A stretch of DNA of 64,000 nucleotides from a virus, in the IMG/VR virus record IMGVR_UViG_3300046804_003780; one strand, 5' to 3'. Within the stretch, counting starts at the first letter, position 1. Each line of letters begins with the position of its first letter. The notes below the pieces were generated by a model. The model searched no databases. It was given only the letters and a program-made list of their open reading frames with translations, and was not told the DNA's origin. Of the stretch, positions 1 through 34,679 are shown in pieces. Position numbers and translations under genes: made by a program.

Positions 1-3000
1 TCCTTGATTTCCTAAAGGATTTGGTAAAGTTATGTTATAATTGCTGCCAGTAATATTTACTAATGCGCCTGACCTTGATAAGGGCAGTGTTGTTGCTGAA
101 CTTACACTAAGATATGAACCAATTAGTCCACTTGTGTTTATAATACCCGAAGCATTTATATTAGTTACATTGCCTAAATTACCTGTATAATTTGGTAAGA
201 AATTAGCTACATTTCCATCATTGTAAACATTTGTGTTTACACCTGTGAGGAAAGCGCCATTACCAAATAAGAAGGCACCCGTAATATTGCCTGCTGCACT
301 TAATACATTTGCTGTTACACGATTTCCAGCAGTTATATTTTCAAATACACTAATATTGCCACCAAATCCAGAATCAATTGCTACGCTAAAGTTACCAGGT
401 GAGATTGTAGCTACACTTGCACCACCAACCGTAACACTTATATTACCATTTGCTACAGGAATATTAATATTACTAACACCATTTGCAATACGTGCAACGT
501 TAGCTGTTACGTTTGTAAGTAGTGCTCCATTACCTACAAATTGATTGCCTGTAATAGTACCTACAGCAGATATACTACCACTTGCTAAAATATTGTTACC
601 TGACGCTATATTTCCAGCAGCACTTACAAGATTGGTAGCATATAAATTACCTACGTTGGCATTTGCAGATGCAGTTATGTTAGCACCATTTATGTTACCT
701 GTTGTGCTAAGAGCGTTGCCAATAATATTATTTCCGTTAATATTTCCAGTAACTGATATATTACCAGATCCACTTAAAAGATTACCTAAATTAGCAGAGC
801 CAATATTAAGTTGTCCTGTTATTGTTGTAGTACCAGTTACTGATAAATTTGCACTTGTTGAAATGTTTCCTGTTGCACTAATTGTACCAGCTGTCGTAAT
901 ATTTTGTCCAGTTACGGTACCTGCTGCGCTTAATGCACCTGCTAAATTAAGGTTTGAATTTGAAGAAATATTTCCTGTTACACTCAAATTACCATTTAAA
1001 TTAGCTAATTGAGGCGATATAACTAACACATTAGGTGTGCCACTTACACCAAAGTTAATATTACCTGCATTAATAGGAATTCTTACATTACTTGATCCAT
1101 TTGCAATTGCTGTCCCTATTGACGGTGTAGTAAAACTTAAATTACCTGCTCCATCAGTAGTTATTACATCTCCTGCATTCCCTCCAAGTATGTTAAGACT
1201 ATCTATATTTGCTAGGTTTGCATTACCTGTAAGCGATAATTCACCTCCAACTCTAACACCTGTCGCTGTTACAGTAAAGACATTTGCAACACTTTGTACA
1301 CTGATTGTTACATTAGCATTAGGATTAACAACAACATTACTATTGCCACCTACTATTTGATTTGATGCTGGTAATGAACCAAATGTTAAGTTACCATTTG
1401 CGTCAACAACAGTTAGTACTTGATTTGCAATACCACCTGTTACTTTTAATCTAGCTATGTCAGTTAAAATATTACCGTTCGCAGTTAAACTACCACTTAC
1501 ACTCACTCCAGTGTTACTAAATATAGCAGATGTAACACCGGTAGCTACTATGTTAACAGGACCATTAATATTTTGAATGTTTACATTACTTGTACCGTTA
1601 CTGATTTGTGATGTGGGTGGACTTGCTACCCATGTAAGATTACCTTGTCCATCAGTAGAAAGCAATTGATTAGCCGCGCCACCTGTAATAGTTACATTGC
1701 CTATAGGACCTAAGTTTGATCTACCTGAAACAGTGATTCCCGTATTTGCAACTACAAATACGTTCGCATTACCTGCCACACTTGTACGCACATTGCCACT
1801 TAGATCAATAGTTATATTACTTTGTCCATTTGATATTGATGGTGCGATTGGTGCGGGTGCGAATGATATATTTCCAGAACCATCAGTTATAATAATGTTG
1901 TTAGCATTTCCACCTTGAATTTTAACGTTACTAATATTTCCTAAATTAGCAAGGCCAGTATTTACTATACCCGTTGCACTTACTGTGCTTGTAATAATAC
2001 CAGTGTTAGTAAACTGGGTAACATTAGGGGTACCAGCAACACTTACTCTTATATTTGTATTAGCACCAACTACTATATTACTACTACCATTGACGATACT
2101 TTGTGTTGCTGGTGCTGAAGCCCAACCAATTAAACCAGCGTTACCTGTTGTAGTTAATACCTGACCTGTTTGTCCACCTAAAATCCTTAAGTTAGCGATA
2201 GTGCCTAAGTTTACAGGAGCGAAAAAGTTTACTGCTTCATTAAATACTGCGTTTACATTACTAGCAAATGTCGATTGTTCTACTCTAATTCTATTAGCGA
2301 AGCCAGCAACTGTAAATTCTATATTAGCATTTTCTTCAATATTAATAGCACTAAGTCCATTAGCAACTCTATTTGCTGTAGGAGAAAGCCAAGATAAATT
2401 ACCTACCCCGTCTGTTGATAAAATTTGACCTTTAAGGCCTCCTAATATTCTAAGATTTGAAACCTGCCCTAATGCTACATTTGAAGTAAATTCAAAATTA
2501 ACGTTACCAGTAATATTACTTACAGTAAGATTGTTTAAGTTTCCTAAATCAGTGATATTATTTTGACTAGGTGACGTAAGAATTCCAGAAATAAAGTTTG
2601 CAGTTGCTAGATTCCCTAAGTTTGCATTACCTGTTCTAAGATTACCAACCACGCTTAATGACGTTAAATTACCCACTGCAGTAATATTTGCCTGTGATGC
2701 AAATGTAACAGTTGTTGCTACTAATGCATTAGGTACTTGTCCAGTTACATTAGCGCCAGGAATACCAAATAATCTTGAGGCATTTCCAGAAAACGTACCG
2801 CTTGTTACTCCATTACTCTTGTTAAAAGTAAGTGCTGATGAAGCTCCAAACACTCCATTGTCATTAAATTGAATACTTGTATTTGATCCAGCTGCTGGAA
2901 TAACTGCTGTTATGTTCGAGAATGACAAATTACCACTTCCATTTGTCACAAGAACCTCATTGTTGTTACCACCAAAAATTCTTAAGTTTGCTATGCTTCC

Positions 3001-6000
3001 TAAATTGGCTAAGTTACCTACTGTTAAATCATTTACAATCCCAGAAGAAATTATAGTATTTGCTGCATTAATAGTTAACTGATTTACGTTAGAGGTAAGT
3101 GATGTTTGACCTATTGCCACACCGACGTTACTTACTGCTAAACTGCGATAACTATTAGCAGGAGTACCTAAATCGTAAGTATTTCCAATATTTGGAATAA
3201 GATTAGATTGAACAAAATTTGCAACTGCTAAGTTATTAACAGTTGCATTAGAATTTATTGTCAGTGTATTAGCATTTAACGCATTGGATTGAATTGTACC
3301 AAATGCGCTAATATTTGAAGTAGATATTAAATTTGCTACATTCGCTAAATTACTAACAGTCAATCTATTAGCAATTGTTATATTATTACTTGAAATGTTT
3401 GCATTTACAGATAGATTGCCGGTTGAATTTAAATTTGCACCTGTAATGTTTCCGTTGGCAGTTACTAATCCGCCAGTTATAAGATTACCAACTGTAGCGT
3501 TTGCAACTATATTAGTAGTATTTGCATTAAGTATGTTAGACTGAATATTTGCGCTAGCAACAATTGAACCATTGGCACTGATATTGCTTAAAAAGGATGC
3601 ACCGTTTACAGTAAGCGTATTTGATATTGTTGTTAAAGGTAAGTTTGCATTTCCTGTAACACTTAGATTACCTGTTTGTATATTAGTGGTTAAAATATTA
3701 CCTGTAACATTAAAAGCTGAAGTAGTTAAAGAAGTTGCATTTAATGATGTTATATTTGCATTATTTGCATTTAAATTACTTACATTTGATGTATCAGCAG
3801 TCAGCAATCCAGTGATTGCAAAAGAGTTTTGACTTATTACTACTACATTTTGTGTATTGTTAACAGTAAAATTAATTGCATTTGTTGAAGGAATAATGAA
3901 AGTGTTTGTACCACTTGCCAAATTACCTCTTAAATTACCTAAAAAGAAATTAGCTACAACAGCATTTCCTAAACTTGCATTTGAACCTGATACTGTACCT
4001 GTTGTACTAATGGCTCCTGTTGCTGATAAACTTGCTACCTGTAAACTACCGCCTATCGTAGCATTACCTGATGCACTTAATCCTGTTGTATTTACATTTG
4101 CTGTTACACTTATATTTCCAGTGGAATTTACATTTGCTCCAACAACATTACCATTAGCAACAATTCCAGTAATACTCAACACACCGGATATATTTGCATT
4201 ACCCAAATTAGCATTATTCGCAACAAAGTTTCCTGCTGCTGTAATATTAGATGTTGATGATATGTTTCCAGTTACACTTAAATTGCCTGCAGCGGTTATA
4301 TTTAAACCTAGGATGTTACCTGATGCGCTTACAAAGCCTGTTGTCGAAACATTTGCTCCTGTCAAATTACCTGAGGCACTTACTACACCTGTAGTAAATA
4401 AATTAGCTCCTGTTATATTACCGGTTACACTGTGTGTTCCAGTAACTTGAACTCCCTGAGGAGTAATTAACTCTACGTTAGATACGCCACCTACGCTTAC
4501 ACCAACATTCCCGTTAGCCGCAACAGTAACATTACTATTACCATTTATAATTTGAGTGCCAGCACCAATAGTCAAATTAGTCAATAAACTTCCATCGCCT
4601 TGGAAGAAGTTTGCTCTTACTAAATTTCCTAAGTTAGCATTTTGACTAAGGATATTGCCATTTGCTGTTAATTGGCCTGCTATTGAAACACTCGCTGCAG
4701 AAACAGCACCCCCTACGCTTAGTGCTCCTGCTACCCCTAAAGGTCCAACATTAGCATTTCCTGTGACACTTAAATTTCCTGATGTTGCTAGATTAGTTCC
4801 TAAAACATTTCCATTTGCACTAAGTGCCCCAGAAGATAAACTACCTACACTTAGTGTGCCATTAGCAGTTATATTGCCAATTACAGTCAATCCTGTATTA
4901 TTAACTCTTACAACATTGGCAGTTCCTCCAGATCCAATTCGAATCTCTCCGTTAATGCTTGGTATAGAAACATTGCTTGTGCCGTTCGTTAGTTGATTAA
5001 GTGAACTTTGATTTCCTAAATTAATTCCTGTTAAAAATGCACCGTTACCTAAAATATAATTGTCTGATCTTATATTCCCTGTCGTACTAATTTCATTTGT
5101 GACGATTAAATTATTTGTTGTCACATTGCCCGAAACAGAAATATTTCCTGAATTTACCTGTTGTCCAATTAAAGTGCCTACCGCACTCACATTTCCTGAT
5201 GTGAGTAAATTTGCACCTATTACATTACCATTGGCACTAACTCGTCCCGCTGTAGTTATGTTTGCTCCTGATAAAGTACCATTTGCATTGATTGCGCTTG
5301 CTGCATTTAAGTTATTTGCTAAAACATTTCCTAATACACTTACGTTATTTGAATTTACGTTATTAGCAGAAATATTACCTGCTGTACTAATTTGAGTAGT
5401 GGCAATTAAATTTGCACCCTGTATATTTCCATTTGCAGTTACACTACCTGTACTTGATATAGTAGCTCCTCTAATATTAGAGTTAGAAACGATATTATTT
5501 GAAACATTTAAGTTTGCACTATTTAAATTTCCTGTTGCACTAATTGTTGTACTTTGAAGTATGTTAGTTAAAGGATTAAATGTTAAATTTGGACTTGCTG
5601 CCAAACCATCATTAATGTTATATTGAATTTGATTGGTTAATCCTGCAACAATGTCAGGTAACACAACTGGGCTCCAACTTAAATTACCAGTTCCATCTGT
5701 AACCAAAGTATAATCAGGATACCCTCCGGTGATTCTGACGTTTGAAACATCACCTAAATTTGTAATACCGTTTACATCCAGTCCCGTCAATGTGCCAACC
5801 GTAGTTATATTAGGTTGTGATGAAGAATTTGCTATTAATTTTCCAGATAAAAAATTCGCATAAACAGCATTAGCAATATTTGCGTTTTCAGCAGTAATTG
5901 TGTTACTTGCGATGCCGTTTGCATCTGAAGAAATTGACGTATTACCTAAATAAATCGTATTGCCTGATAACCATAGTTCTTTCCAACGTTGTGTTGGGCT

Positions 6001-7140
6001 TCCTAAATTTTGTTGTAAATCATCTTGGGGTATAAGATTACCTTTTACTACACCAGTTAATGAAAGATTTCCTATATTTGCATTACCTAGTGTGTTTAAT
6101 CCAGCTGATGTGACAACACCCCCTGCACTTATTTGTCCTGTAGTTCTTAAATTACCACCAGTAACATTACCTGTTGCACTAATACTTGAATTTGCATTTA
6201 CAGTTGTAAAATTAGCAGGCGCTGCGTTACCTGTTCCTAAACCAAGAGATCCTGTCAAGTTCGCTGAAGTAAGAAGCGTGGTTGTTATTCTTGTTATGTT
6301 TGCATTACCAGTTAATGATAAATTACTTGTATCTTTATTAAAGGTAAGATTTGCACTACCACCAAATAATCCAGCTGTATCTTGGAACTGAATTTGTGTG
6401 TTGGCACCACCTGGAGTCCCTGTGCCTGCTTGATAGAATGAACAAATAATATTACCTGTATTGGCAACTGCAGGGGTAAAACCTGTACTGTTGACTGCGT
6501 TAGCTAATCCTGGATCGCTATATATCGAAAAAGTTTTATTTGTTAATTTGACGCCATAATATTTGTTTGTATTGTTTTCACCAGACACCGCAATTTCAGG
6601 CATACCTGCTACACCAATAATAGTTAGTGGAATACCAGTGACAATAGTATTATCATTAATTGTAGTTACAACTGCTGGATTGGCTTTTGTAATGCCTTGT
6701 ATTCTAAATGTGCCAACACCAGTACCTTCCCAGCTCAAGTTACCAGTACCATCTGTGGTTAACACATAACCGTTTAATCCACCTCTTAGTACAACATTGT
6801 TAGCAGTTCCTAAATCTATTTTAATATTGCTTGTGCCACCAGCGTTAACCCATGTATTTGCATTAGCTACTAACACTTGACCTGTGTTGACAGGACTGTT
6901 TAGAGATATTTGTGTGTTAGCAGTACCGCCTATTTTAGACCAGTTGAGTACAGAAACTTCTGTTAAAATCTCTGTTTGAGTGGTTAGTGCATTGCCTGAA
7001 GGGGGAAATAGATTAGGATCATTCCCAATGTATAATCTGCGTTCGTCAGTTGCAAACCCTAATTCGCCCTCAGCTAGTTGGGGCAAGTCAACGTTAGCCC
7101 CTGTGCGGTGTTGAATCTTAGAAATCTGTATAATAGCCAT
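1..7140 (-). CDS. Giant tail-fibre/adhesin-like virion protein, >2380 aa, 3'-truncated at the window edge
   Basis: ATG at 7140 reads MAIIQISKIQHRTGANVDLPQLAEGELGFATDERRLYIGND (Mtd_N-like fibre N-terminus). The same frame is still open at position 1 (...NITLPNPLGNQG), and the track lists no closed minus-strand ORF here. Asn/Gly/Thr/Ala-rich repeats such as GGxxxxVLxTDGxGNLSW and ANLGN..ANFFxG. Confidence 0.85.
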   Translation of the reverse strand, partial: MAIIQISKIQHRTGANVDLPQLAEGELGFATDERRLYIGNDPNLFPPSGNALTTQTEILTEVSVLNWSKIGGTANTQISLNSPVNTGQVLVANANTWVNAGGTSNIKIDLGTANNVVLRGGLNGYVLTTDGTGNLSWEGTGVGTFRIQGITKANPAVVTTINDNTIVTGIPLTIIGVAGMPEIAVSGENNTNKYYGVKLTNKTFSIYSDPGLANAVNSTGFTPAVANTGNIICSFYQAGTGTPGGANTQIQFQDTAGLFGGSANLTFNKDTSNLSLTGNANITRITTTLLTSANLTGSLGLGTGNAAPANFTTVNANSSISATGNVTGGNLRTTGQISAGGVVTSAGLNTLGNANIGNLSLTGVVKGNLIPQDDLQQNLGSPTQRWKELWLSGNTIYLGNTSISSDANGIASNTITAENANIANAVYANFLSGKLIANSSSQPNITTVGTLTGLDVNGITNLGDVSNVRITGGYPDYTLVTDGTGNLSWSPVVLPDIVAGLTNQIQYNINDGLAASPNLTFNPLTNILQSTTISATGNLNSANLNVSNNIVSNSNIRGATISSTGSVTANGNIQGANLIATTQISTAGNISANNVNSNNVSVLGNVLANNLNAASAINANGTLSGANITTAGRVSANGNVIGANLLTSGNVSAVGTLIGQQVNSGNISVSGNVTTNNLIVTNEISTTGNIRSDNYILGNGAFLTGINLGNQSSLNQLTNGTSNVSIPSINGEIRIGSGGTANVVRVNNTGLTVIGNITANGTLSVGSLSSGALSANGNVLGTNLATSGNLSVTGNANVGPLGVAGALSVGGAVSAASVSIAGQLTANGNILSQNANLGNLVRANFFQGDGSLLTNLTIGAGTQIINGNSNVTVAANGNVGVSVGGVSNVELITPQGVQVTGTHSVTGNITGANLFTTGVVSASGNLTGANVSTTGFVSASGNILGLNITAAGNLSVTGNISSTSNITAAGNFVANNANLGNANISGVLSITGIVANGNVVGANVNSTGNISVTANVNTTGLSASGNATIGGSLQVASLSATGAISTTGTVSGSNASLGNAVVANFFLGNLRGNLASGTNTFIIPSTNAINFTVNNTQNVVVISQNSFAITGLLTADTSNVSNLNANNANITSLNATSLTTSAFNVTGNILTTNIQTGNLSVTGNANLPLTTISNTLTVNGASFLSNISANGSIVASANIQSNILNANTTNIVANATVGNLITGGLVTANGNITGANLNSTGNLSVNANISSNNITIANRLTVSNLANVANLISTSNISAFGTIQSNALNANTLTINSNATVNNLAVANFVQSNLIPNIGNTYDLGTPANSYRSLAVSNVGVAIGQTSLTSNVNQLTINAANTIISSGIVNDLTVGNLANLGSIANLRIFGGNNNEVLVTNGSGNLSFSNITAVIPAAGSNTSIQFNDNGVFGASSALTFNKSNGVTSGTFSGNASRLFGIPGANVTGQVPNALVATTVTFASQANITAVGNLTSLSVVGNLRTGNANLGNLATANFISGILTSPSQNNITDLGNLNNLTVSNITGNVNFEFTSNVALGQVSNLRILGGLKGQILSTDGVGNLSWLSPTANRVANGLSAINIEENANIEFTVAGFANRIRVEQSTFASNVNAVFNEAVNFFAPVNLGTIANLRILGGQTGQVLTTTGNAGLIGWASAPATQSIVNGSSNIVVGANTNIRVSVAGTPNVTQFTNTGIITSTVSATGIVNTGLANLGNISNVKIQGGNANNIIITDGSGNISFAPAPIAPSISNGQSNITIDLSGNVRTSVAGNANVFVVANTGITVSGRSNLGPIGNVTITGGAANQLLSTDGQGNLTWVASPPTSQISNGTSNVNIQNINGPVNIVATGVTSAIFSNTGVSVSGSLTANGNILTDIARLKVTGGIANQVLTVVDANGNLTFGSLPASNQIVGGNSNVVVNPNANVTISVQSVANVFTVTATGVRVGGELSLTGNANLANIDSLNILGGNAGDVITTDGAGNLSFTTPSIGTAIANGSSNVRIPINAGNINFGVSGTPNVLVISPQLANLNGNLSVTGNISSNSNLNLAGALSAAGTVTGQNITTAGTISATGNISTSANLSVTGTTTITGQLNIGSANLGNLLSGSGNISVTGNINGNNIIGNALSTTGNINGANITASANANVGNLYATNLVSAAGNIASGNNILASGSISAVGTITGNQFVGNGALLTNVTANVARIANGVSNINIPVANGNISVTVGGASVATISPGNFSVAIDSGFGGNISVFENITAGNRVTANVLSAAGNITGAFLFGNGAFLTGVNTNVYNDGNVANFLPNYTGNLGNVTNINASGIINTSGLIGSYLSVSSATTLPLSRSGALVNITGSNYNITLPNPLGNQG

Positions 7141-7921: not shown

Positions 7922-8248
7922 TTAAATGGTGAAGCTTTCCCCACAACCACAGCGCGCCTTTTCTTTCGGATTTATAAAGTTAAAGCCTTCATTTAATCCC
8001 TCACGCTTCCATTCCATTGTAAGCCCATCTACATAAGGTAAATCTTTATTGTTAACAACTACAATTAAATCAGCTATGTTGTAACTCATGTAACTGCCTT
8101 GTGTAGGAAGGTTATCAACATATTCAAGTTTATATGCTAAACCACTGCATCCAGTAGTTTGGACTCCTATCATTATGCCTAATCCTTTACCACGCTTTTG
8201 AATTTGTTGTTTGACTTTGTTTGCTGCTTTTTCTGTAAGAGTAATCAT
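7922..8248 (-). CDS. iscA: Fe-S cluster assembly A-type carrier (IscA/HesB)
   Basis: MITLTEKAA, TGCSGLAY, C-terminal CGCGESF. Confidence 0.95.
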   Translation of the reverse strand: MITLTEKAANKVKQQIQKRGKGLGIMIGVQTTGCSGLAYKLEYVDNLPTQGSYMSYNIADLIVVVNNKDLPYVDGLTMEWKREGLNEGFNFINPKEKARCGCGESFTI

Positions 8249-8574
8249 CGTTTATCGCTTGCACGTTGAGCCATTTTTGCTACAGTTTTTTCTGCATCAT
8301 CTACGCTCATTGGTTTTTTACCGTCAACCTTTTGACCCTTAAAAATTATTTCATCACCCTTTATATCGTCAATGATGTTGACTAAAGGTTCTTTAGTAAT
8401 CATGTCACGCAAATCGCTTATATCGACACTTATATCATTTGAATTCATAAGTTGAATAAATGCATCTACTGACATCGGTTTATTTGCATGTAGGTATTTG
8501 CCTTTAAGTTGGTCGGCAATAGCGACCAACTTAACACGTAAAGGATCATCACCTACAAATTCAAATAAACGCAT
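8245..8574 (-). CDS. Hypothetical protein, probably virion/head (MRLFEF N-terminus)
   Basis: ORF track; shares an N-terminal motif with other late genes. Confidence 0.6.
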   Translation of the reverse strand: MRLFEFVGDDPLRVKLVAIADQLKGKYLHANKPMSVDAFIQLMNSNDISVDISDLRDMITKEPLVNIIDDIKGDEIIFKGQKVDGKKPMSVDDAEKTVAKMAQRASDKR

Positions 8575-8576
8575 TA

Positions 8577-9302
8577 TTATCTTTTACCGCGACCTAATTT
8601 TGGAGAAGGAATTTCTTCACTATCCATTTCATCTTCAGGTTGTGTTGATAATTCTTCTGCATCTTGAGCCATTGCGTCTACTTCTTCACCAGGCATTCCA
8701 CCTGCCATATCTGCACCAGGCATTCCCATACCAGGCATGCCAGCTGCAAATCCAGAACCTTGGCCAGTTACGACATTTAACGCACTCTGTAATCCTGACT
8801 TTGCTTGCGTTAAAGCAGCTTGCAATCCGGTCAATGCTTCAGTAGCCATTGAGTTAAACTGCTCACCTTGATCGCCGCCCATTTCACCGCTTACGCTATC
8901 TACTACGGCTGGAAGTTCTTTAACTAGCATGTCAGAAACATCTTCTATCATTTTCTGAACACTATCCATCATATCTTTGGCTGCAAGAACAACTTGCGCT
9001 TGTTCAATTTCTTCATTTTCTACAACAATTCGACTATTATATTTTGGTTGTGCTTTTAATTCAGAATAGTAGTCTGAAAGGGCTTGCTCCATAAATACAA
9101 GTTTTAGGTATTGAGGATTGTTTTCGCTTGAGTAAACCTTGTCAGTTTCTTTTACTTCGCTAAGTAGATTTTTTACTTTCCCAAGCATATCCCTAGTTTG
9201 CGTAAGACTCAGCTTTTCAACTGGAAGATCCGTGTTAAAGTTCTCTCTTAGAGCCTTTTTGGCCATTGCGTAAGGTTTTTGATTAAATTCTGTAAGTTTC
9301 AT
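8577..9302 (-). CDS. Acidic helical protein, probable prohead core/scaffold-type
   Basis: Start MKLTEF at 9302; acidic low-complexity tail ending LGRGKR; TAAATA upstream. Confidence 0.5.
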   Translation of the reverse strand: MKLTEFNQKPYAMAKKALRENFNTDLPVEKLSLTQTRDMLGKVKNLLSEVKETDKVYSSENNPQYLKLVFMEQALSDYYSELKAQPKYNSRIVVENEEIEQAQVVLAAKDMMDSVQKMIEDVSDMLVKELPAVVDSVSGEMGGDQGEQFNSMATEALTGLQAALTQAKSGLQSALNVVTGQGSGFAAGMPGMGMPGADMAGGMPGEEVDAMAQDAEELSTQPEDEMDSEEIPSPKLGRGKR

Positions 9303-9342
9303 AGTAATTCCCAAAGATGTATAGTATTTATCAAGATTCCAA

Positions 9343-9834
9343 TTATTTATAGGAACTTTGATTCAACCAATTTAGTTGATAATTTTTAGCTTTTTGTCCT
9401 AAAACTGATAGTTCTGATATCACTGAGGTTTGTTTCAATTTATTCTCAATTATTTTATTTAGATATATAAACTTTTTGTCTTTTTCTTTAGACTTTTTCA
9501 GATATCTTTCACATAAATTTATAGAAATGTCTAATCCGTTCAATTGATTATCTAGGAACTTAACACGGTCTGCTTCAACAATTTTATTTTTGTTGTCTAA
9601 CGTACACCAAGTCAAAGCGTACTTTAGGGTACAAAAAGCATTTATTTGGTCATTGTACAATTGTATTACTTGATACCCTTTTACCGTTTTCTTAATAATA
9701 TATTTCTCAAAAACTCTATATCCGTCTTTTTCTTGGATTATAACAAATTTTTTGATATTATTTACTGTAGCAGGATCTATTATTTTTTGAATAGATTTTA
9801 AAAATTCTTTATCAGTCATAGGATAAAATTTCAA
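9343..9834 (-). CDS. Hypothetical protein
   Basis: ORF track, co-directional with neighbours. Confidence 0.6.
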   Translation of the reverse strand: MKFYPMTDKEFLKSIQKIIDPATVNNIKKFVIIQEKDGYRVFEKYIIKKTVKGYQVIQLYNDQINAFCTLKYALTWCTLDNKNKIVEADRVKFLDNQLNGLDISINLCERYLKKSKEKDKKFIYLNKIIENKLKQTSVISELSVLGQKAKNYQLNWLNQSSYK

Positions 9835-10261
9835 AATATATATTACGTAGTTCGGGACTAATATCTAAACTTGTAGGTATATTATGGGGACTTTTCCCAG
9901 TTTTGATCATAGGTACGTCCTCACAGTCATTGTATAGAGCACCTAAATCATCTTTTCCGTCTGAGAATACGCTAGCATAATTGACTATAAAATCAAAATA
10001 CCAATAATTTTGAGTTTCAGTAAAATCATATAAAAATCCAAATTTATCAATATTCTTGTCATCACTGTTTAGAAAAGGTTCTGTGACGTTTTCAGGCTGA
10101 GCCCTTAATGAAATAACTTGTATTATTGTGTCTAAATTACACTGTGTGCTTCTTTTATTTTGCCACTCTAAAGCTTCCTCAACTGAAGCGTCTAGTAACT
10201 TTTTCTTATTTGTTACATTAGTTTTTGTAATATCAAACAAGCTATAACATCTTATTCTCAT
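9812..10261 (-). CDS. Hypothetical protein
   Basis: ORF track; ATG 5 nt after TAAATA. Confidence 0.65.
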   Translation of the reverse strand: MRIRCYSLFDITKTNVTNKKKLLDASVEEALEWQNKRSTQCNLDTIIQVISLRAQPENVTEPFLNSDDKNIDKFGFLYDFTETQNYWYFDFIVNYASVFSDGKDDLGALYNDCEDVPMIKTGKSPHNIPTSLDISPELRNIYFEILSYD

Positions 10262-27523: not shown

Positions 27524-29236
27524 TTAATTTATTCCAGAAAGTTTCTTAATTCTAGCTAGCAATGGATCTACACTTTCAAATCCAACTGCGTAACCCTTAA
27601 AGGGATGTTGTTTTGGTTCTTTACCAAGTACTGGGCTGATGCCTTTTGCCTTTTTCGTTGGTCCTAATTGTTTTGCTTTTGTTTGTTGTTTGTTTAATGA
27701 TTCATCAACATTTTGGTCTATACCAGCTTCGATTTCCTCTAAGTAGGCGTCAAGTATTTGTTGAACATCTTGCAAATCTATATTAACCGCTTTTGCAATT
27801 TCAGGATCACGATATCCTTTAATTGCAAGTTCAACTATTTTACCAATTAATTCTTCATCTAATTCTCTATCATTTTCCATTACAGGGGCTGCAGGTTGTT
27901 GAGGCATTTGTGGCGCAGGTTGAGGAGCAGGCGCTGGCGGGACTTGGGCTGCCGGTGATGGTACCTGTATATCACCTTTCATAATACTTTTAATTTCATT
28001 GGCTAAATCATGCAAGTCATGGTCGTCTGTGCGTTGCGCCCAACTTAAAATAACCTCACGTGCATCTGCATCCACATCAGTTGATGCTAATTCATCTAGT
28101 TCACCAAATAAATCTTCATTTTCTAGGTTATATTTTGATAAAATATTTTTTGCATTTATTGCATCGTCACCAACTGGTATTTCTTCCGTAAACTGTGCTG
28201 CTAAATCTTTTATTTGTAAATTATTATGTGGCTTAAGTTTTTCATTAATTATATTGTTCGTCCATTCTTCTAATTCGGTAACCTCATCAATTTTACCTGA
28301 CACTTTATGAATGCGTACTAATACCGGCATCGCTCTTTCAATACGTGGATCTATACTAGAACTCATAAACATTTCTGCAAGATCAGGTTGACCGATTCCC
28401 ATATCTTCATTAAGTGTAGGAGTCCAATTTTCAAAGTAGGTATTATACCCACGTTTACCTGCTAATTTTTGTAATGACTCACGCAACTTAAGATAATGTT
28501 CTACCCCTTCATTTACTAATACTTGCGTACTTTCGTTAAACTGTCCGTTACGTGTGGCGCGTACAAATCCTGCCATACTAGTATATTCTTCAACTAAATT
28601 GTGAATATGATTCCAACGGTCATCATTTACTTTTCCACCTTCTGCAATATGTCTTGCATAGATTCTTGCTATTCCTGGTTTTTTAGTATCTAACAGAAAT
28701 CTTTCTCCGTTAACGTTTTCTAAATAAATTTTTTCAACGTTTCTAAAACGCTGCATTCCCTCTTCCATATTCTTACTGTGTTGAATTTTTATCTTTACGT
28801 TTGGTACACTATCATTTAAACTTATTCGTCTTCCTAATGGATGATATCCTTCACTGATATTTTTACTATCTTCTCTCTTAGCCATTTCATCCTCTAAATT
28901 TCCAATATCATCACGCTCATATCCAAGTTGGTGATCATGTGCCCAATTTTTAATATAATTTGAAACTTCATTGAAAGACATTCCATCTTTATCTTTGCTA
29001 TGATTAGGGCTATTCAATACCTCATCCTCAGGCCAAACCACTACGTTTTTGCCTATAACTGCGGTATACACTTGTCCATAGTCTACGTCATCCATTTTGA
29101 AATCAAACTTAAAAACATCAGTCATCTTACTTAAAGGAACTGGTTTACCTGCGGAGTTTAATCTAATTGGCCTAAATCCTTGGGTTTTTAAAAAGTTATA
29201 AAGTTGATCTTGTAATGATTCTTCTTTAATTGGCAT
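27524..29236 (-). CDS. Large acidic late protein (probable head core/internal)
   Basis: TAAATA upstream; Pro/Gln linker; ends LARIKKLSGIN. Confidence 0.5.
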   Translation of the reverse strand: MPIKEESLQDQLYNFLKTQGFRPIRLNSAGKPVPLSKMTDVFKFDFKMDDVDYGQVYTAVIGKNVVVWPEDEVLNSPNHSKDKDGMSFNEVSNYIKNWAHDHQLGYERDDIGNLEDEMAKREDSKNISEGYHPLGRRISLNDSVPNVKIKIQHSKNMEEGMQRFRNVEKIYLENVNGERFLLDTKKPGIARIYARHIAEGGKVNDDRWNHIHNLVEEYTSMAGFVRATRNGQFNESTQVLVNEGVEHYLKLRESLQKLAGKRGYNTYFENWTPTLNEDMGIGQPDLAEMFMSSSIDPRIERAMPVLVRIHKVSGKIDEVTELEEWTNNIINEKLKPHNNLQIKDLAAQFTEEIPVGDDAINAKNILSKYNLENEDLFGELDELASTDVDADAREVILSWAQRTDDHDLHDLANEIKSIMKGDIQVPSPAAQVPPAPAPQPAPQMPQQPAAPVMENDRELDEELIGKIVELAIKGYRDPEIAKAVNIDLQDVQQILDAYLEEIEAGIDQNVDESLNKQQTKAKQLGPTKKAKGISPVLGKEPKQHPFKGYAVGFESVDPLLARIKKLSGIN

Positions 29237-29265: not shown

Positions 29266-30813
29266 TCAGCCAAGCACCGCATAGAAGGGCAATGGGGCCA
29301 AAAATTCATCATAATCACGAATTTGAGACTCAAGTTCACTAACATAATTACCAAGGTCCTGTAACATTCTGGTTACTAATAATGTAGCCATAACTAAATC
29401 ATCGGTTTCTCCTACTTTTGCTTTGTACGACCCTGAGTTTGCAACAAAATTCTTCATCTCTGTCACCAAAGATTTACTATGTATTTTCATGCGTTTTGAT
29501 TCTACAAGATGCTTAAATTTTGCACATGCCGCCAATTTAGATTTTTGTGTTGTATTGTAACCCTTACGTTTTTTTACTCCTGACTCAGTTAAAAAAGTAC
29601 CAGGAATATTATGTTCTCCGTATTCTTGTAAAGACATTAGTGCAGCTTCACCAATAGAATTATTTTCAATACTATAGTAAATATTATTTGGTTCTTTGGT
29701 TAGATCAACTATATAATCTGTTATCTGTTTCATTAAACGTATTTGTTCAGGTATTACAGTTTGATTATGTTTCCATTCACCAACTTGAGTTGTTGTGTTT
29801 GCCTCAAATATTTGTATTGCTGCTGGGTCGCTACCTGTACCTAAACTAGGATCAAGAGCTAGGACGTAAATATTACCGGAAGTTGGTTTTTTATACCAAC
29901 GTACCTGACCTTGTTTATATATAGGTTCTATACCTTCTAGTTCAAATAAAGCACTTGGACTAATTAATGTTTCATCAGCAATAATAAATTCACAATCCAT
30001 CTCACGACGGAATCTATCAGAACCTAATTGAGCTTTCATTTCTATTGCCCATCGTTCATCTCGTTCAGGATGCTCATGCCAATAAGCACGATAGGCTTTA
30101 AACCCATTTACTCCCACTTCAGTTTGATTTCCGAACTCATCTTCAGTTTTGTTAGCCATCTTCCAAATAAGTGCGAACTGATCTTCGTCACTGTTTGGTG
30201 TACTTGTGATAATTGCTTTACCACCAGTTGATAGTGTTGGTGTAATAGAAGTCCAAAACTCTTGTGCTATGGTAGGTCTTACGAAAGCAAATTCGTCAAG
30301 ATATAATAATGAAATAGAAAGACCACGACCTGTATTTTCAGTGGTTGTTGCACTAATTATACGACTACCGTTATCAAAGTCTAATGATCCTTTGTTGTAT
30401 GTTACAACACCTGCTTTAATATGTAATGGACAATTTTCATATGCATATCGAATACGTTGCATAATCTCTTGTGCACCTGCATACTTGTGTGCGGCAATTA
30501 ATATTGTACTGTCAGGTACAAACATAGCATACCAAAGTAAATAACCAGCTGCACTTGTTGATTTACCAGTTTGTCGTGGCATTAGTGAAATTGAAAAACG
30601 ATACTTATGATATGTTTCGATTAATCGTTCTTGATAGTCCCACGGATGATACTGCATTGCTCCCTTAGTTGGATGCTGAATCATAAAGAAGTTATCCATA
30701 AAGTAAAGATAACCAGTTGCAGGATCACTACATTTGATAAAATCTTCTAGTTGTTTATCATCCGCAAATACTGTTTTTGCGTAAGGGGTTTTAATTAAGG
30801 TAGGAATACTCAT
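29266..30813 (-). CDS. Terminase large subunit (gp17-like)
   Basis: PRQTGKST, LYLDEFAF, ITSTPN, DPSLGTGSD, IENN, DDLVMA. Confidence 0.95.
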   Translation of the reverse strand: MSIPTLIKTPYAKTVFADDKQLEDFIKCSDPATGYLYFMDNFFMIQHPTKGAMQYHPWDYQERLIETYHKYRFSISLMPRQTGKSTSAAGYLLWYAMFVPDSTILIAAHKYAGAQEIMQRIRYAYENCPLHIKAGVVTYNKGSLDFDNGSRIISATTTENTGRGLSISLLYLDEFAFVRPTIAQEFWTSITPTLSTGGKAIITSTPNSDEDQFALIWKMANKTEDEFGNQTEVGVNGFKAYRAYWHEHPERDERWAIEMKAQLGSDRFRREMDCEFIIADETLISPSALFELEGIEPIYKQGQVRWYKKPTSGNIYVLALDPSLGTGSDPAAIQIFEANTTTQVGEWKHNQTVIPEQIRLMKQITDYIVDLTKEPNNIYYSIENNSIGEAALMSLQEYGEHNIPGTFLTESGVKKRKGYNTTQKSKLAACAKFKHLVESKRMKIHSKSLVTEMKNFVANSGSYKAKVGETDDLVMATLLVTRMLQDLGNYVSELESQIRDYDEFLAPLPFYAVLG

Positions 30814-30831: not shown

Positions 30832-32187
30832 TTATGTTACTTCTTCCCAATTTACTGCACCGTATACGTTAACGTTGTTACCATTAGTTGTCAAACATAT
30901 TGTTAGCTCCATGGGAGTACTAGTAAATGTGTTTCTTTCTAATTGATATGCGAAAGGATCAGCAACGTCAGCAACACCTGCAAATTGATTACTACCAATA
31001 ATTTGTTTCCATTCGGCTATTCTACCACCAGTAATACTAGTTGCAGTTAAATTATATTCTACTGAACTACTTGTACCTGCGTCTACCCAAGTGCCACCTG
31101 CTGTTGTTCCACCTATTATAATCATAAATCTAAAATTATTATTACCGGTTAGCCCAACACTATAATTTTTAGGTAATACAATAGCACCCATTCTAGTAGA
31201 TTTTAATCTCATACTAAAGATTGGGTATACAGTATTTGGATTTGACAGTACATAAGGGGCATTTAATCCATGACCAATACTCAACGGTCTGCCTGTTAAT
31301 GCGTATCCACCTTCAGAAATAACTGTGCTACAAATTTGTTTATATGTGCTACTGCTTGTAGTTATTCCGGTGTTTTCTATTTCCATTCGCACTGGTAAAC
31401 ATGCGGTAGTCATATATGTTGATGAAATAATATTTGCATGTTGGAACACATGTGCCAATATAAATTGACCGTTGATTACAAATCCACATCTAACACTACC
31501 TACTCCTAACCACTCTATATCAAAAAATAAAATTTGTGCTTTAGTCATATCAAGCACGACACCTGATTCACCTGTTCCGTCTAATGGATCTACATTCCAA
31601 TCAGCTTGATTTGCAGTTTCATATACTATTGATCCGGTAACATACGAACGAATTCTAAATTTTAACGCAGTTCCATCTTGCTCTAAAAATACCCCATTGT
31701 TGGTATCAAAATATCCTATTCGTTGGCGAAGATTTGTCTTTGCGGGCGACATAACAAATGTAGTTAATATTTGTAAACTTTTTCCAGGCTGATATGCAAA
31801 TACACGATTACTTTCTCTATACACTGCATCACCGCTTGCAGTGCCAACCGTGCAATTAATTAATCCTGCGTTATCATCGAACGTTGCGGTAGCATCTCCA
31901 TTGGTGTAAGTGCTAATTTTACCGTTATCATTATAACGATGAAAACTATCAAATAAAGTTAATGGATTGCTTACACGTAATCTACCGAATGCATCGTTCG
32001 ATGCAGGGCTTGCACCACTTGTTGTACGAATAACAGGCTGGCCCTGTGTATTATATTCCATCGCCTTAGCGAGATTTAATAAATTCGTTTCCTGTGGATG
32101 AATGTAATTTGTAGAATTTAATCTTTTGTCTAGAACACCGTCATGGTGAGCCGGGGTGTATAGTTGACCTGTATCTTCTCCTGCCAT
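30832..32187 (-). CDS. Beta-rich probable virion protein
   Basis: DAFGRLRVS, YQPGKS, EWLGVGSVRCG; late-gene context. Confidence 0.55.
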   Translation of the reverse strand: MAGEDTGQLYTPAHHDGVLDKRLNSTNYIHPQETNLLNLAKAMEYNTQGQPVIRTTSGASPASNDAFGRLRVSNPLTLFDSFHRYNDNGKISTYTNGDATATFDDNAGLINCTVGTASGDAVYRESNRVFAYQPGKSLQILTTFVMSPAKTNLRQRIGYFDTNNGVFLEQDGTALKFRIRSYVTGSIVYETANQADWNVDPLDGTGESGVVLDMTKAQILFFDIEWLGVGSVRCGFVINGQFILAHVFQHANIISSTYMTTACLPVRMEIENTGITTSSSTYKQICSTVISEGGYALTGRPLSIGHGLNAPYVLSNPNTVYPIFSMRLKSTRMGAIVLPKNYSVGLTGNNNFRFMIIIGGTTAGGTWVDAGTSSSVEYNLTATSITGGRIAEWKQIIGSNQFAGVADVADPFAYQLERNTFTSTPMELTICLTTNGNNVNVYGAVNWEEVT

Positions 32188-32197
32188 TTTTTATCCT

Positions 32198-32635
32198 TTA
32201 TGGCCCTGGTGGTGTGTCTACCCATGGTCGGCCTTCAATAAGTCCGTCTGGATTGGGATTATCAACTACTGTATTTCCGCTATAATATGTAGGTAATTCA
32301 GAAATGTCATAGTATGGTCTAGTATTACCCAATTCTAATCTTTCTAAATTTGATAAATCTAATTTGGCGACTTGCCTATCTTCAAGTGTCGTAAGCCTAG
32401 CTATCTTATTTGCTGTTCTCAAAACAGACCCTTCTGTTATAGAATAAAATGCTAACGTTTTTGTTACATCTAATTCTGTGCTGTTAAACACAAGGCTGAA
32501 CCAGTTAACATTGCAACTTGTTGCAGTTTCTATTGTTGTTTTGAACGTACCTACCGTAGTTAAATCCGCAACAGTATATGGATCAAATTGTGCTGCGTTG
32601 AGTAAACTTTGTACAGTTATATTGATTGTCGCCAT
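32198..32635 (-). CDS. Ubiquitin-like domain protein with C-terminal extension
   Basis: Residues ~3-75 align by eye with ubiquitin (TVGTFKTTI; LVFNSTELDVTKTLAFYSITEGSVL). Confidence 0.65.
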   Translation of the reverse strand: MATINITVQSLLNAAQFDPYTVADLTTVGTFKTTIETATSCNVNWFSLVFNSTELDVTKTLAFYSITEGSVLRTANKIARLTTLEDRQVAKLDLSNLERLELGNTRPYYDISELPTYYSGNTVVDNPNPDGLIEGRPWVDTPPGP

Positions 32636-32637
32636 TA

Positions 32638-32925
32638 TTATTCCTTAAACTGTAGTCCAGGATATAACGGAAATGTGGCTGTTTTTAAATCTGCTGGATG
32701 CTTTGGTCCGTTCACTCCGCCGGCGATATCTTTAATAAGATAATCTACAGACGTAACCACTGTATCAGGACTGTTTGCTAAGTTATTTTGGCAGTTAGGG
32801 CAATCACAACCATCTCCGCACCCACAGTCATCAGATTCATTTTCAAAATCTAATTGACCATCTTCTTTACCGTCTAGATTATCAATTAAATCTAACAGGT
32901 CTCTAATAAATTCAGTAGCTCTCAT
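32638..32925 (-). CDS. Small acidic late protein with Cys cluster
   Basis: MRATEFI start; CGCGDGCDCPNC. Confidence 0.6.
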   Translation of the reverse strand: MRATEFIRDLLDLIDNLDGKEDGQLDFENESDDCGCGDGCDCPNCQNNLANSPDTVVTSVDYLIKDIAGGVNGPKHPADLKTATFPLYPGLQFKE

Positions 32926-32937
32926 GATAATATTTAT

Positions 32938-33273
32938 CTACCCAATTGTGCCTAAGTCGGGTTCAGTATCCCAAGGGTCTGTTTGTCCAGGAACAAATTT
33001 GGGCTTTTGTAGCTTCTCAGGGTCTAACGGCACTGCGTTCGGATCATCTTTTGATGGATCATATGACTTTGGTTTATTTGGTAGTTTACCAAATGTTTTT
33101 ATATATCTTTTATAATCATCCCATGTGTCTCCAATTTCTTCTGGATCACCTTGAAGTTCTTCTGGCGTTCTGCCGTAGAAGTTTTGTCTTTGTTGATGTT
33201 TTTCCCATGCCTTTTGTATTTGTTGAAATCTAGGATCACTTTCGCTTTCAGTTAATATTTCATGTATTCTCAT
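32938..33273 (-). CDS. Small late protein
   Basis: MRIHEILTE start. Confidence 0.6.
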   Translation of the reverse strand: MRIHEILTESESDPRFQQIQKAWEKHQQRQNFYGRTPEELQGDPEEIGDTWDDYKRYIKTFGKLPNKPKSYDPSKDDPNAVPLDPEKLQKPKFVPGQTDPWDTEPDLGTIG

Positions 33274-34301: not shown

Positions 34302-34679
34302 TTATTTTCCGAATCCTTTAAAAGATTGGATAGGACTACTTTTATAAATATCCGGTAATTCTTGACTTCTGAGATCGCCTTTTGTTACATCATGCAACTT
34401 AGAACCTATTGCTTTTGCAGCCTGCTTCATCATATCCTGTTCTAGCTTTGTATATGGTTGAGCAGAATTATCTTTACCAATCCAACTTTCAGAATTAATA
34501 TTTATTGGAATGCCTGTGCCATCTGCACATGCTACTGCCATCATCATTCTATTTAATTCATAAGTTCTATCATAGCCCTCAGGGTCACGAAATACATCAA
34601 TCCCGACACTTGCATAGCCTTGTCTTTTCGTAATTTTACCTCGTTTTTTAGATTCAAAAATAAATTCTTTAGCTCTCAT
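34302..34679 (-). CDS. Hypothetical late protein
   Basis: MRAKEFIFE start. Confidence 0.6.
   Translation of the reverse strand: MRAKEFIFESKKRGKITKRQGYASVGIDVFRDPEGYDRTYELNRMMMAVACADGTGIPININSESWIGKDNSAQPYTKLEQDMMKQAAKAIGSKLHDVTKGDLRSQELPDIYKSSPIQSFKGFGK

Follow-up and report, generated by a model that had tools for sequence, protein, structure and literature searches.

Background

The idea of a ubiquitin-like (Ubl) domain on a phage structural protein is not new, nor is that of a modular N-terminal anchor. In the P22/Sf6-type tailspikes and in T7 gp17, a conserved N-terminal domain binds the particle and is combined with exchangeable receptor-binding parts. In T4 Soc display, both termini of Soc can carry added domains. 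Ubiquitin-domain proteins (type-2 Ubls), such as the Dsk2/Rad23 Ubl, the OASL Ubl and viral ubiquitin fusions, contain the Ubl as a built-in domain and not as a free modifier. The tail-tip protein gpI of phage lambda (TAPI family) is reported to have an N-terminal Ubl that is cleaved by gpK in tail-tip assembly (conference report PMC12908700). Finally, bacterial Bil systems are reported to conjugate a Ubl to the central tail fiber of phages (bioRxiv 10.1101/2023.09.04.556158).

The gene described here lies in the IMG/VR virus record IMGVR_UViG_3300046804_003780, of which a stretch of 64,000 nucleotides, hereafter the window, was analyzed. The original prediction, made from the letters alone, had proposed a ubiquitin fold followed by a tail of about 70 residues, acting either as a decoy or inhibitor of bacterial Ubl-conjugation defense or as a virion decoration domain. 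The protein shares with the type-2 Ubls the beta-grasp topology and a Ubl that is built in, but it comes from a tailed phage of bacteria, lacks a Gly-Gly end, and no ubiquitin-system enzymes were found with it. Like lambda gpI, it has a ubiquitin-like domain at the N-terminus of a putative phage structural module. It differs from gpI in having no PF06805 match (E up to 0.1) and no JAB partner, in its myovirus context, and in a rigid junction without a cleavable tail; membership in the gpI/TAPI family was ruled out on the missing PF06805 match and JAB. What it shares with the tailspikes and T7 gp17 is that a constant module at the N-terminus is combined, at one slot of a conserved backbone, with C-terminal carbohydrate-binding domains that are exchanged horizontally. 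However, the phage module has only about 65 residues, is unrelated in sequence to those anchors, also occurs free and also takes N-terminal cargo. As with Soc, this is a small accessory protein of a T4-type phage which, by analogy, may hold cargo at both termini; unlike Soc, to which the module has no sequence relationship, its capsid binding is only putative. Soc homology was rejected (hhalign probability 0.2%; PF16855 was matched neither in five carriers nor in the controls). A literature search found no paper describing the family; the searchable literature likewise has no account of the combination of Ubl and anchor, of the eukaryote-type signature in its sequence or of the 65-residue module.

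Results and Discussion

Gene and phage setting

The gene is an ORF of 145 aa, present in the ORF list and in the sequence, at 32198..32635 (-), stop codon included. It has an ATG start, a ribosome-binding site (AAGGA, 8 nt upstream) and a TAA stop, and both the peptides first quoted for it and the C-terminal end GLIEGRPWVDTPPGP are present in this frame. Three parts can be distinguished: a ubiquitin-like beta-grasp domain (residues 1-75, 32411..32635 (-)), a conserved module named here the anchor (residues 76-138, 32222..32410 (-)), and a variable C-terminal extension, VDTPPGP (32201..32221 (-)), which is aligned in close relatives only. The name anchor is an interpretation.

The gene belongs to a single tightly packed block on one strand, together with its flanking ORFs and the large terminase gene. 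The upstream ORF encodes p95, a small acidic Cys-rich protein of 95 aa (32638..32925 (-)), and ends 2 nt before the Ubl gene; in 54 of 160 loci the anchor gene is directly preceded by a p95-like ORF. The downstream ORF begins 10 nt after the Ubl gene and encodes VSP451, a 451-residue lectin-fold virion structural protein (30832..32187 (-); phrog_1645, E 3.8e-117). The large terminase subunit, TerL, is of the T4 type (29266..30813 (-); PF03237, PF17289, phrog_36964 and synteny) and lies 1.4 kb downstream of the Ubl gene, in agreement with the proposal that the gene is near terminase. This context suggests a late gene. The T4 late-promoter motif TATAAATA is not enriched in the window (5 found, 13 expected), and none stands in front of the Ubl gene.

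The window encodes a DnaB-like helicase, a primase, UvsX and a gp32-type SSB which, together with the T4-type terminase, assign it to a T4-like phage. ORFs in the 36896-63970 region match Pfam families that include phosphate-selective porin O/P, a PstS-like periplasmic binding protein, thymidylate synthase, Fe-S cluster biosynthesis, class-V aminotransferase, NAD-dependent epimerase, family-2 glycosyltransferases and radical SAM, apparently auxiliary metabolic and sugar-modification genes of an aquatic phage. There is an ORF of more than 2380 aa at 1-7140 (-) that runs off the window end, and parts of it resemble ORFs of phages that are otherwise not syntenic, where they stand 1.5-3.8 kb upstream of the Ubl gene. 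Directly after TerL is p570 (27524-29236 (-), 570 aa), which has a weak virion-structural PHROG match, a Pro/Ala/Gln-rich linker and a C-terminal helix-turn-helix-like stretch, and is kept in all syntenic relatives.

Ubiquitin domain

Residues 1-75 are a member of the ubiquitin family, both as a fold and as a Pfam domain, as judged from profile matches and a predicted structure. PF00240 (ubiquitin) matches residues 19-72 with 27.8 bits, above its curated cut-off of 25.4 (E 2.1e-6). This family and PF11976 are the only Pfam matches of the protein at E up to 0.1, which rules out membership in YukD, the JGI name given to two homologues. Relatives in three of five contigs score 26-44 bits against PF00240 and those in the other two 17.7-24.2 bits, while the cut-off was passed in none of 14 control prokaryote genomes. 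A profile restricted to the Ubl (residues 1-76, 26 homologues) retrieved single ubiquitin chains from the PDB (E ~1e-5 to 3e-6). Its alignment is gap-free and in the same register (family 22-73 against ubiquitin 17-68), which bears out the near gap-free alignment first made by eye. A phmmer search of PDB sequences with the whole protein gave no match, and none was obtained against PHROGs, PADLOC or NCBIfam.

An AlphaFold2 model was built on a 57-sequence alignment (mean pLDDT 93.6, pTM 0.84; pLDDT 93-98 in the Ubl). The predicted secondary structure comprises strands 3-9 and 17-23, helix 28-39, strands 46-50 and 71-76, helix 84-102 and a hairpin at 116-125, and within the Ubl the modeled strands and helix follow the textbook ubiquitin order. 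The first matches of the model in a Foldseek search of the PDB were ubiquitin, ISG15, NEDD8 and the Dsk2 Ubl (target TM 0.85-0.93, rmsd 1.1-1.5 A over ~75 residues, identity 21-25%). VIA-align also placed ubiquitin/ISG15 on top (Z 14.7, rmsd 1.2 A over 74 residues). Thus the structure prediction and Foldseek comparison called for originally returned a beta-grasp, with profile similarity to the ubiquitin family, and the proposed fold is upheld by the Pfam cut-off, the confident model and the superposition at about 1.2 A.

Several differences from ubiquitin were found. Val49 occupies the position of ubiquitin Ile44 and Lys32 that of Lys27, Lys48 and Lys63 are not conserved, and an invariant Trp45 stands where ubiquitin has Gln40. 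The loop between strands 1 and 2 is 5 residues longer in the phage Ubl and carries a conserved VQSLLN. The Gly-Gly pair is absent from the end of the Ubl in 57 of 57 aligned homologues, as had been noted for this protein. The junction instead reads LRTANKIARL and is ordered in the model (pLDDT ~96-97). Asn76 closes strand 5, and the predicted chain continues well ordered into the module, with no flexible linker.

The enzymes of ubiquitin-like conjugation were searched for in five related contigs. Neither E1 (ThiF), nor Prok-JAB, nor JAB was found there; OTU had no match in these contigs, nor in the controls. E1, JAB and OTU are likewise missing from the 25 families listed, out of 26 Pfam families matched by 44 other ORFs of the window. 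Since neither a Gly-Gly end nor these enzymes were found, the protein is not a conjugatable modifier of the kind represented by Ub, NEDD8, ISG15 or the bacterial Bil/Bub Ubls.

C-terminal module

Residues 76-140 are a domain of their own, of about 65 residues. A tail of roughly the predicted length and without Gly-Gly is indeed present; it is, however, an autonomous conserved domain and not a mere tail. Its motif is N-K-I-x-R-L, followed by an RQxAKLxL helix, an LPTxYxGN hairpin and GLxxGRPW. In the alignment of homologues, conservation is higher in residues 76-138 than in the Ubl. In comparisons with close relatives, where dS is saturated, the anchor has dN/dS values of 0.03-0.06 and the Ubl 0.11-0.16. 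The whole gene is under purifying selection, with dN/dS well below 1.

The question of whether homologues have the tail without the Ubl received a clear answer: more than 450 viral-contig loci encode the module alone at the extreme N-terminus. The search of 1.84 billion proteins gave dozens whose residues 2-70 align with query residues 74-142 and with nothing else of the query, and which continue with 100-730 unrelated residues. The Ubl-less members begin 2-3 residues before the invariant Asn76. Additions at the C-terminus of the module include LamG_3, GLEYA/PA14, ILEI and fiber-like stretches that match tail-protein PHROGs. These homologues change the picture: what stays constant, under the strongest constraint, is the tail, and the Ubl belongs to a set of several additions that can be exchanged. 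The module is very highly conserved in phages whose backbones are otherwise unrelated.

The module has no sequence match in Pfam, PHROG, NCBIfam or the PDB. The best PDB match of the anchor profile was a portal protein, not significant (E 0.61), and the anchor part retrieved nothing usable from the ESM Atlas. In four proteins (P0243, P0253, P0259 and P0268) only the last third of the module matches (LPTxYxGN ... GRPW, query 108-142), at internal positions of unrelated sequences. This sub-motif may move on its own.

Family and distribution

An exhaustive search over 1.84 billion protein representatives gave 290 proteins. Many of these carry the Ubl and module at the N-terminus of proteins of 200-536 aa, and one carries the pair at the C-terminus. 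At least 156 homologues have about 140 aa. An apparent relative with 17 repeats (P0195) was rejected as a SprB-repeat protein with a summed chance match. The IMG/VR loci number at least 179 for the Ubl form and at least 451 for the Ubl-less form. Among 160 loci fetched from IMG/VR, the architectures are Ubl and anchor (58), Ubl, anchor and C-terminal domain (23), anchor and C-terminal domain (64) and anchor alone (15); the free 68-aa anchor proteins are real ORFs. None of these loci has more than one copy, and the five related contigs likewise carry one each; one of these contigs, of 360 kb, is rated 100% complete. The four carriers rated at least 85% complete measure 318-383 kb, and all four have a T4-type gp23.

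Cultured phages gave no match when 50,697 records were searched with the 6.5-kb region (megablast) and with the protein (tblastn). Two scans of 185,579 prokaryote species genomes found no relative of the Ubl form, and the one anchor match that they gave comes from a Fischerella MAG, on a 24-kb contig with low coverage. From this the family appears to be confined to viruses. Every member is named "hypothetical protein" in the databases; two homologues carry the JGI name mentioned above.

In the anchor tree, all Ubl-less forms except one fall in a single supported clade (54 rows, 99/88), and the exception (L034) is a contig-end truncation. This indicates that the Ubl was gained or lost essentially once; which of the two depends on the root of the tree.

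Genomic slot and neighboring genes

The orthologous slot has the order p257-p125-methyltransferase-p90-X-TerL, then p570, SSB and UvsX. Position X before TerL is filled by the Ubl-anchor with VSP451, by the Ubl-anchor alone, by an anchor-LamG fusion, or by a free anchor followed by a fiber-like 482-aa protein; in the window phage it holds the Ubl-module protein and the lectin-fold virion protein. One relative (L005) shares 93% identity with the window in TerL, 94% in the methyltransferase and 95% in p570. At the slot the values are 70% for p111, 80% for p95, 83% for the Ubl protein and 41% for VSP451, the last over its first 177 residues only. In this comparison divergence peaks at the slot, between conserved flanks, which suggests that the gene sits in a recombination-prone position between a cluster of small proteins and the large terminase.

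The commonest gene right after the anchor gene encodes a VSP451 homologue (38 loci, median gap 7 nt). Other neighbors across the loci encode a tail-fiber-like protein, a virion structural protein, endolysins, a spanin-like protein and a glycosyltransferase, and one free anchor adjoins genes for a membrane coiled-coil protein and a ClpX-like ATPase. One locus (L107) has a free 68-aa anchor at 8001-8207, followed by a 111-aa acidic protein and the 482-aa fiber-like protein (8555-10003), in the same slot before TerL. Another (L124) has a free 68-aa anchor at 8001-8207 among non-structural genes.

Homologues of VSP451 are annotated as virion structural proteins in cyanomyophages and in podophage HMO-2011; that of S-RIM12 is encoded between the genes for the small and the large terminase. 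The VSP451 model is all-beta, with ConA-like lectin sandwiches (AlphaFold2, pLDDT 72.8). In fold comparisons, the receptor-binding domain of mycobacteriophage TM4 gp23 came first, and ConA-like lectins were also matched; phmmer against PDB sequences gave no match. The N-terminal 86 residues are conserved and modeled with low confidence or as disordered, as would be expected of a segment that needs a partner. Cyanophages and HMO-2011 have homologues of VSP451 but no anchor gene, so that the pairing with the anchor is not obligatory. In HMO-2011 and S-RIM12, the VSP homologue is preceded by small ORFs, which are related neither to the Ubl protein nor to the anchor. No homologue of the S-RIM12 small terminase was detected in the window.

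Four small ORFs of the window have similar starts: MRATEFIRD (p95, 32638-32925 (-)), MRIHEILTE (32938-33273 (-)), MRAKEFIFE (34302-34679 (-)) and MRLFEFVGD (8245-8574 (-)). They resemble the capsid-targeting sequence MKTYQEFIAE of T4 ipII and ipIII (T4 record), and these ORFs may encode capsid-packaged internal proteins cleaved after an acidic residue. In S-RIM12, gp134 adjoins the VSP homologue and starts MKSYNEFISE.

Possible roles

The Ubl gene behaves like a structural or adhesin cassette. The short constant module, its exchangeable carbohydrate-binding domains, the single copy per locus or contig, the hot spot within a conserved backbone and the lectin-fold virion neighbor together lead us to read the Ubl-anchor as a cassette variant. 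Such a pattern is that of phage attachment or decoration proteins with a particle-docking N-terminus. Most likely, the Ubl protein is a variant of a swappable virion-surface protein and not a part of ubiquitin signaling. The fuller reading, which we prefer tentatively, is that a constant module docks on the virion and displays exchangeable domains there, the Ubl being one permanent cargo. Residues 76-140 would bind a conserved T4-type virion component or an assembly partner, and both ends of the anchor tolerate cargo. The N-terminal cargo is here a permanently attached, non-conjugatable ubiquitin-fold domain, which would serve as an exposed protein-interaction or spacer domain and not as a modifier. 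Related phages carry a C-terminal LamG, PA14/GLEYA, ILEI or fiber-like domain, both kinds of cargo, or none. Most likely, the anchor protein and its lectin-fold neighbor together make up an exchangeable cassette for surface adhesion or decoration. The virion decoration domain of the original prediction thus fits the evidence better than the decoy offered beside it, with a virion location, a docking partner and Ubl contacts that are putative. Two observations fit the display reading poorly: the VSP451 homologues without an anchor gene in cyanophages and HMO-2011, and some free 68-aa modules, which lie among non-structural genes (membrane coiled-coil protein, ClpX-like ATPase) or near glycosyltransferase or endolysin genes.

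These same free forms may point to a function outside the virion. The module could bind a conserved partner inside the cell or in its envelope, of phage or host origin, and the lectin and Ubl fusions could adapt it for lysis, superinfection exclusion or host takeover. Endolysin, spanin-like and glycosyltransferase neighbors in several loci are consistent with such a role, as is the very high conservation across unrelated backbones. However, the most frequent immediate neighbors are the virion structural protein and terminase, and the C-terminal cargo domains are typical of extracellular adhesins and fibers; we regard this function as unlikely.

Less likely still is an assembly checkpoint of the lambda gpI type, in which the Ubl masks or guides a structural module and is removed by a protease once the module is placed, exposing an N-terminus like that of the Ubl-less proteins. 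The precedent is gpI itself, with its N-terminal Ubl on a structural domain and its reported cleavage by gpK (PMC12908700). The cleaved product would moreover resemble the Ubl-less family members, because those start just before Asn76. However, no JAB, Prok-JAB or OTU was found in the five related contigs, of which one is rated complete (for OTU the controls were also without a match), nor among the Pfam families listed for other ORFs of the window. The junction is rigid, with neither Gly-Gly nor flexible linker, PF06805 has no match, and the carriers are T4-like myoviruses and not siphoviruses.

The decoy received no support. It would require that a non-conjugatable Ubl traps the E1/E2 of Bil-type systems or shields a targeted structural protein. 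The central tail fiber is the reported target of Bil systems (bioRxiv 10.1101/2023.09.04.556158), the Ubl gene stands beside structural genes, and the Ubl evolves faster than its flanks, all of which would suit such a trap. On the other side, PADLOC gave no defense-system match for the protein at E up to 0.1 and no sequence similarity to defense-system proteins, no E1, JAB or OTU was found in the five related contigs or among the Pfam families listed for other ORFs of the window, and sister phages have Ubl-less forms in the same slot. The nearest fold and sequence relatives among the matches listed are eukaryote-type ubiquitin and ISG15, with no bacterial defense Ubl. The decoy is very unlikely. 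We give as little credence to a combined version, in which the module would serve jumbo T4-like phages as a new scaffold for docking on the capsid or neck, display cargo from either end and present the Ubl as a non-conjugatable trap or shield against host Ubl-conjugation defenses aimed at structural proteins. Finally, a small terminase subunit or other packaging factor, suggested by loci where the Ubl gene is the last before TerL (L014-L018 and L020), is scarcely credible, as there is no match to a terminase-small family, lectin and PA14 fusions make no sense for a DNA-recognition subunit, and in many genomes the Ubl/anchor gene is far from TerL.

Conclusions

At present the structural annotation is solid, and the role as a virion display cassette is one that we infer. 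In this large uncultured family, a domain that belongs to the ubiquitin family by Pfam's own threshold is built into a phage protein, and the ubiquitin enzymes that were searched for were not found alongside. A new and very conserved module of 65 residues marks a swappable cassette in T4-like phages of 318-383 kb from natural waters. If the Ubl meets host Ubl-conjugation defenses, it would be a first phage-encoded Ubl countermeasure. If the module docks on the particle, it would be a natural two-ended display scaffold, and a marker by which host-range and adhesion genes may be recognized in metagenomes.
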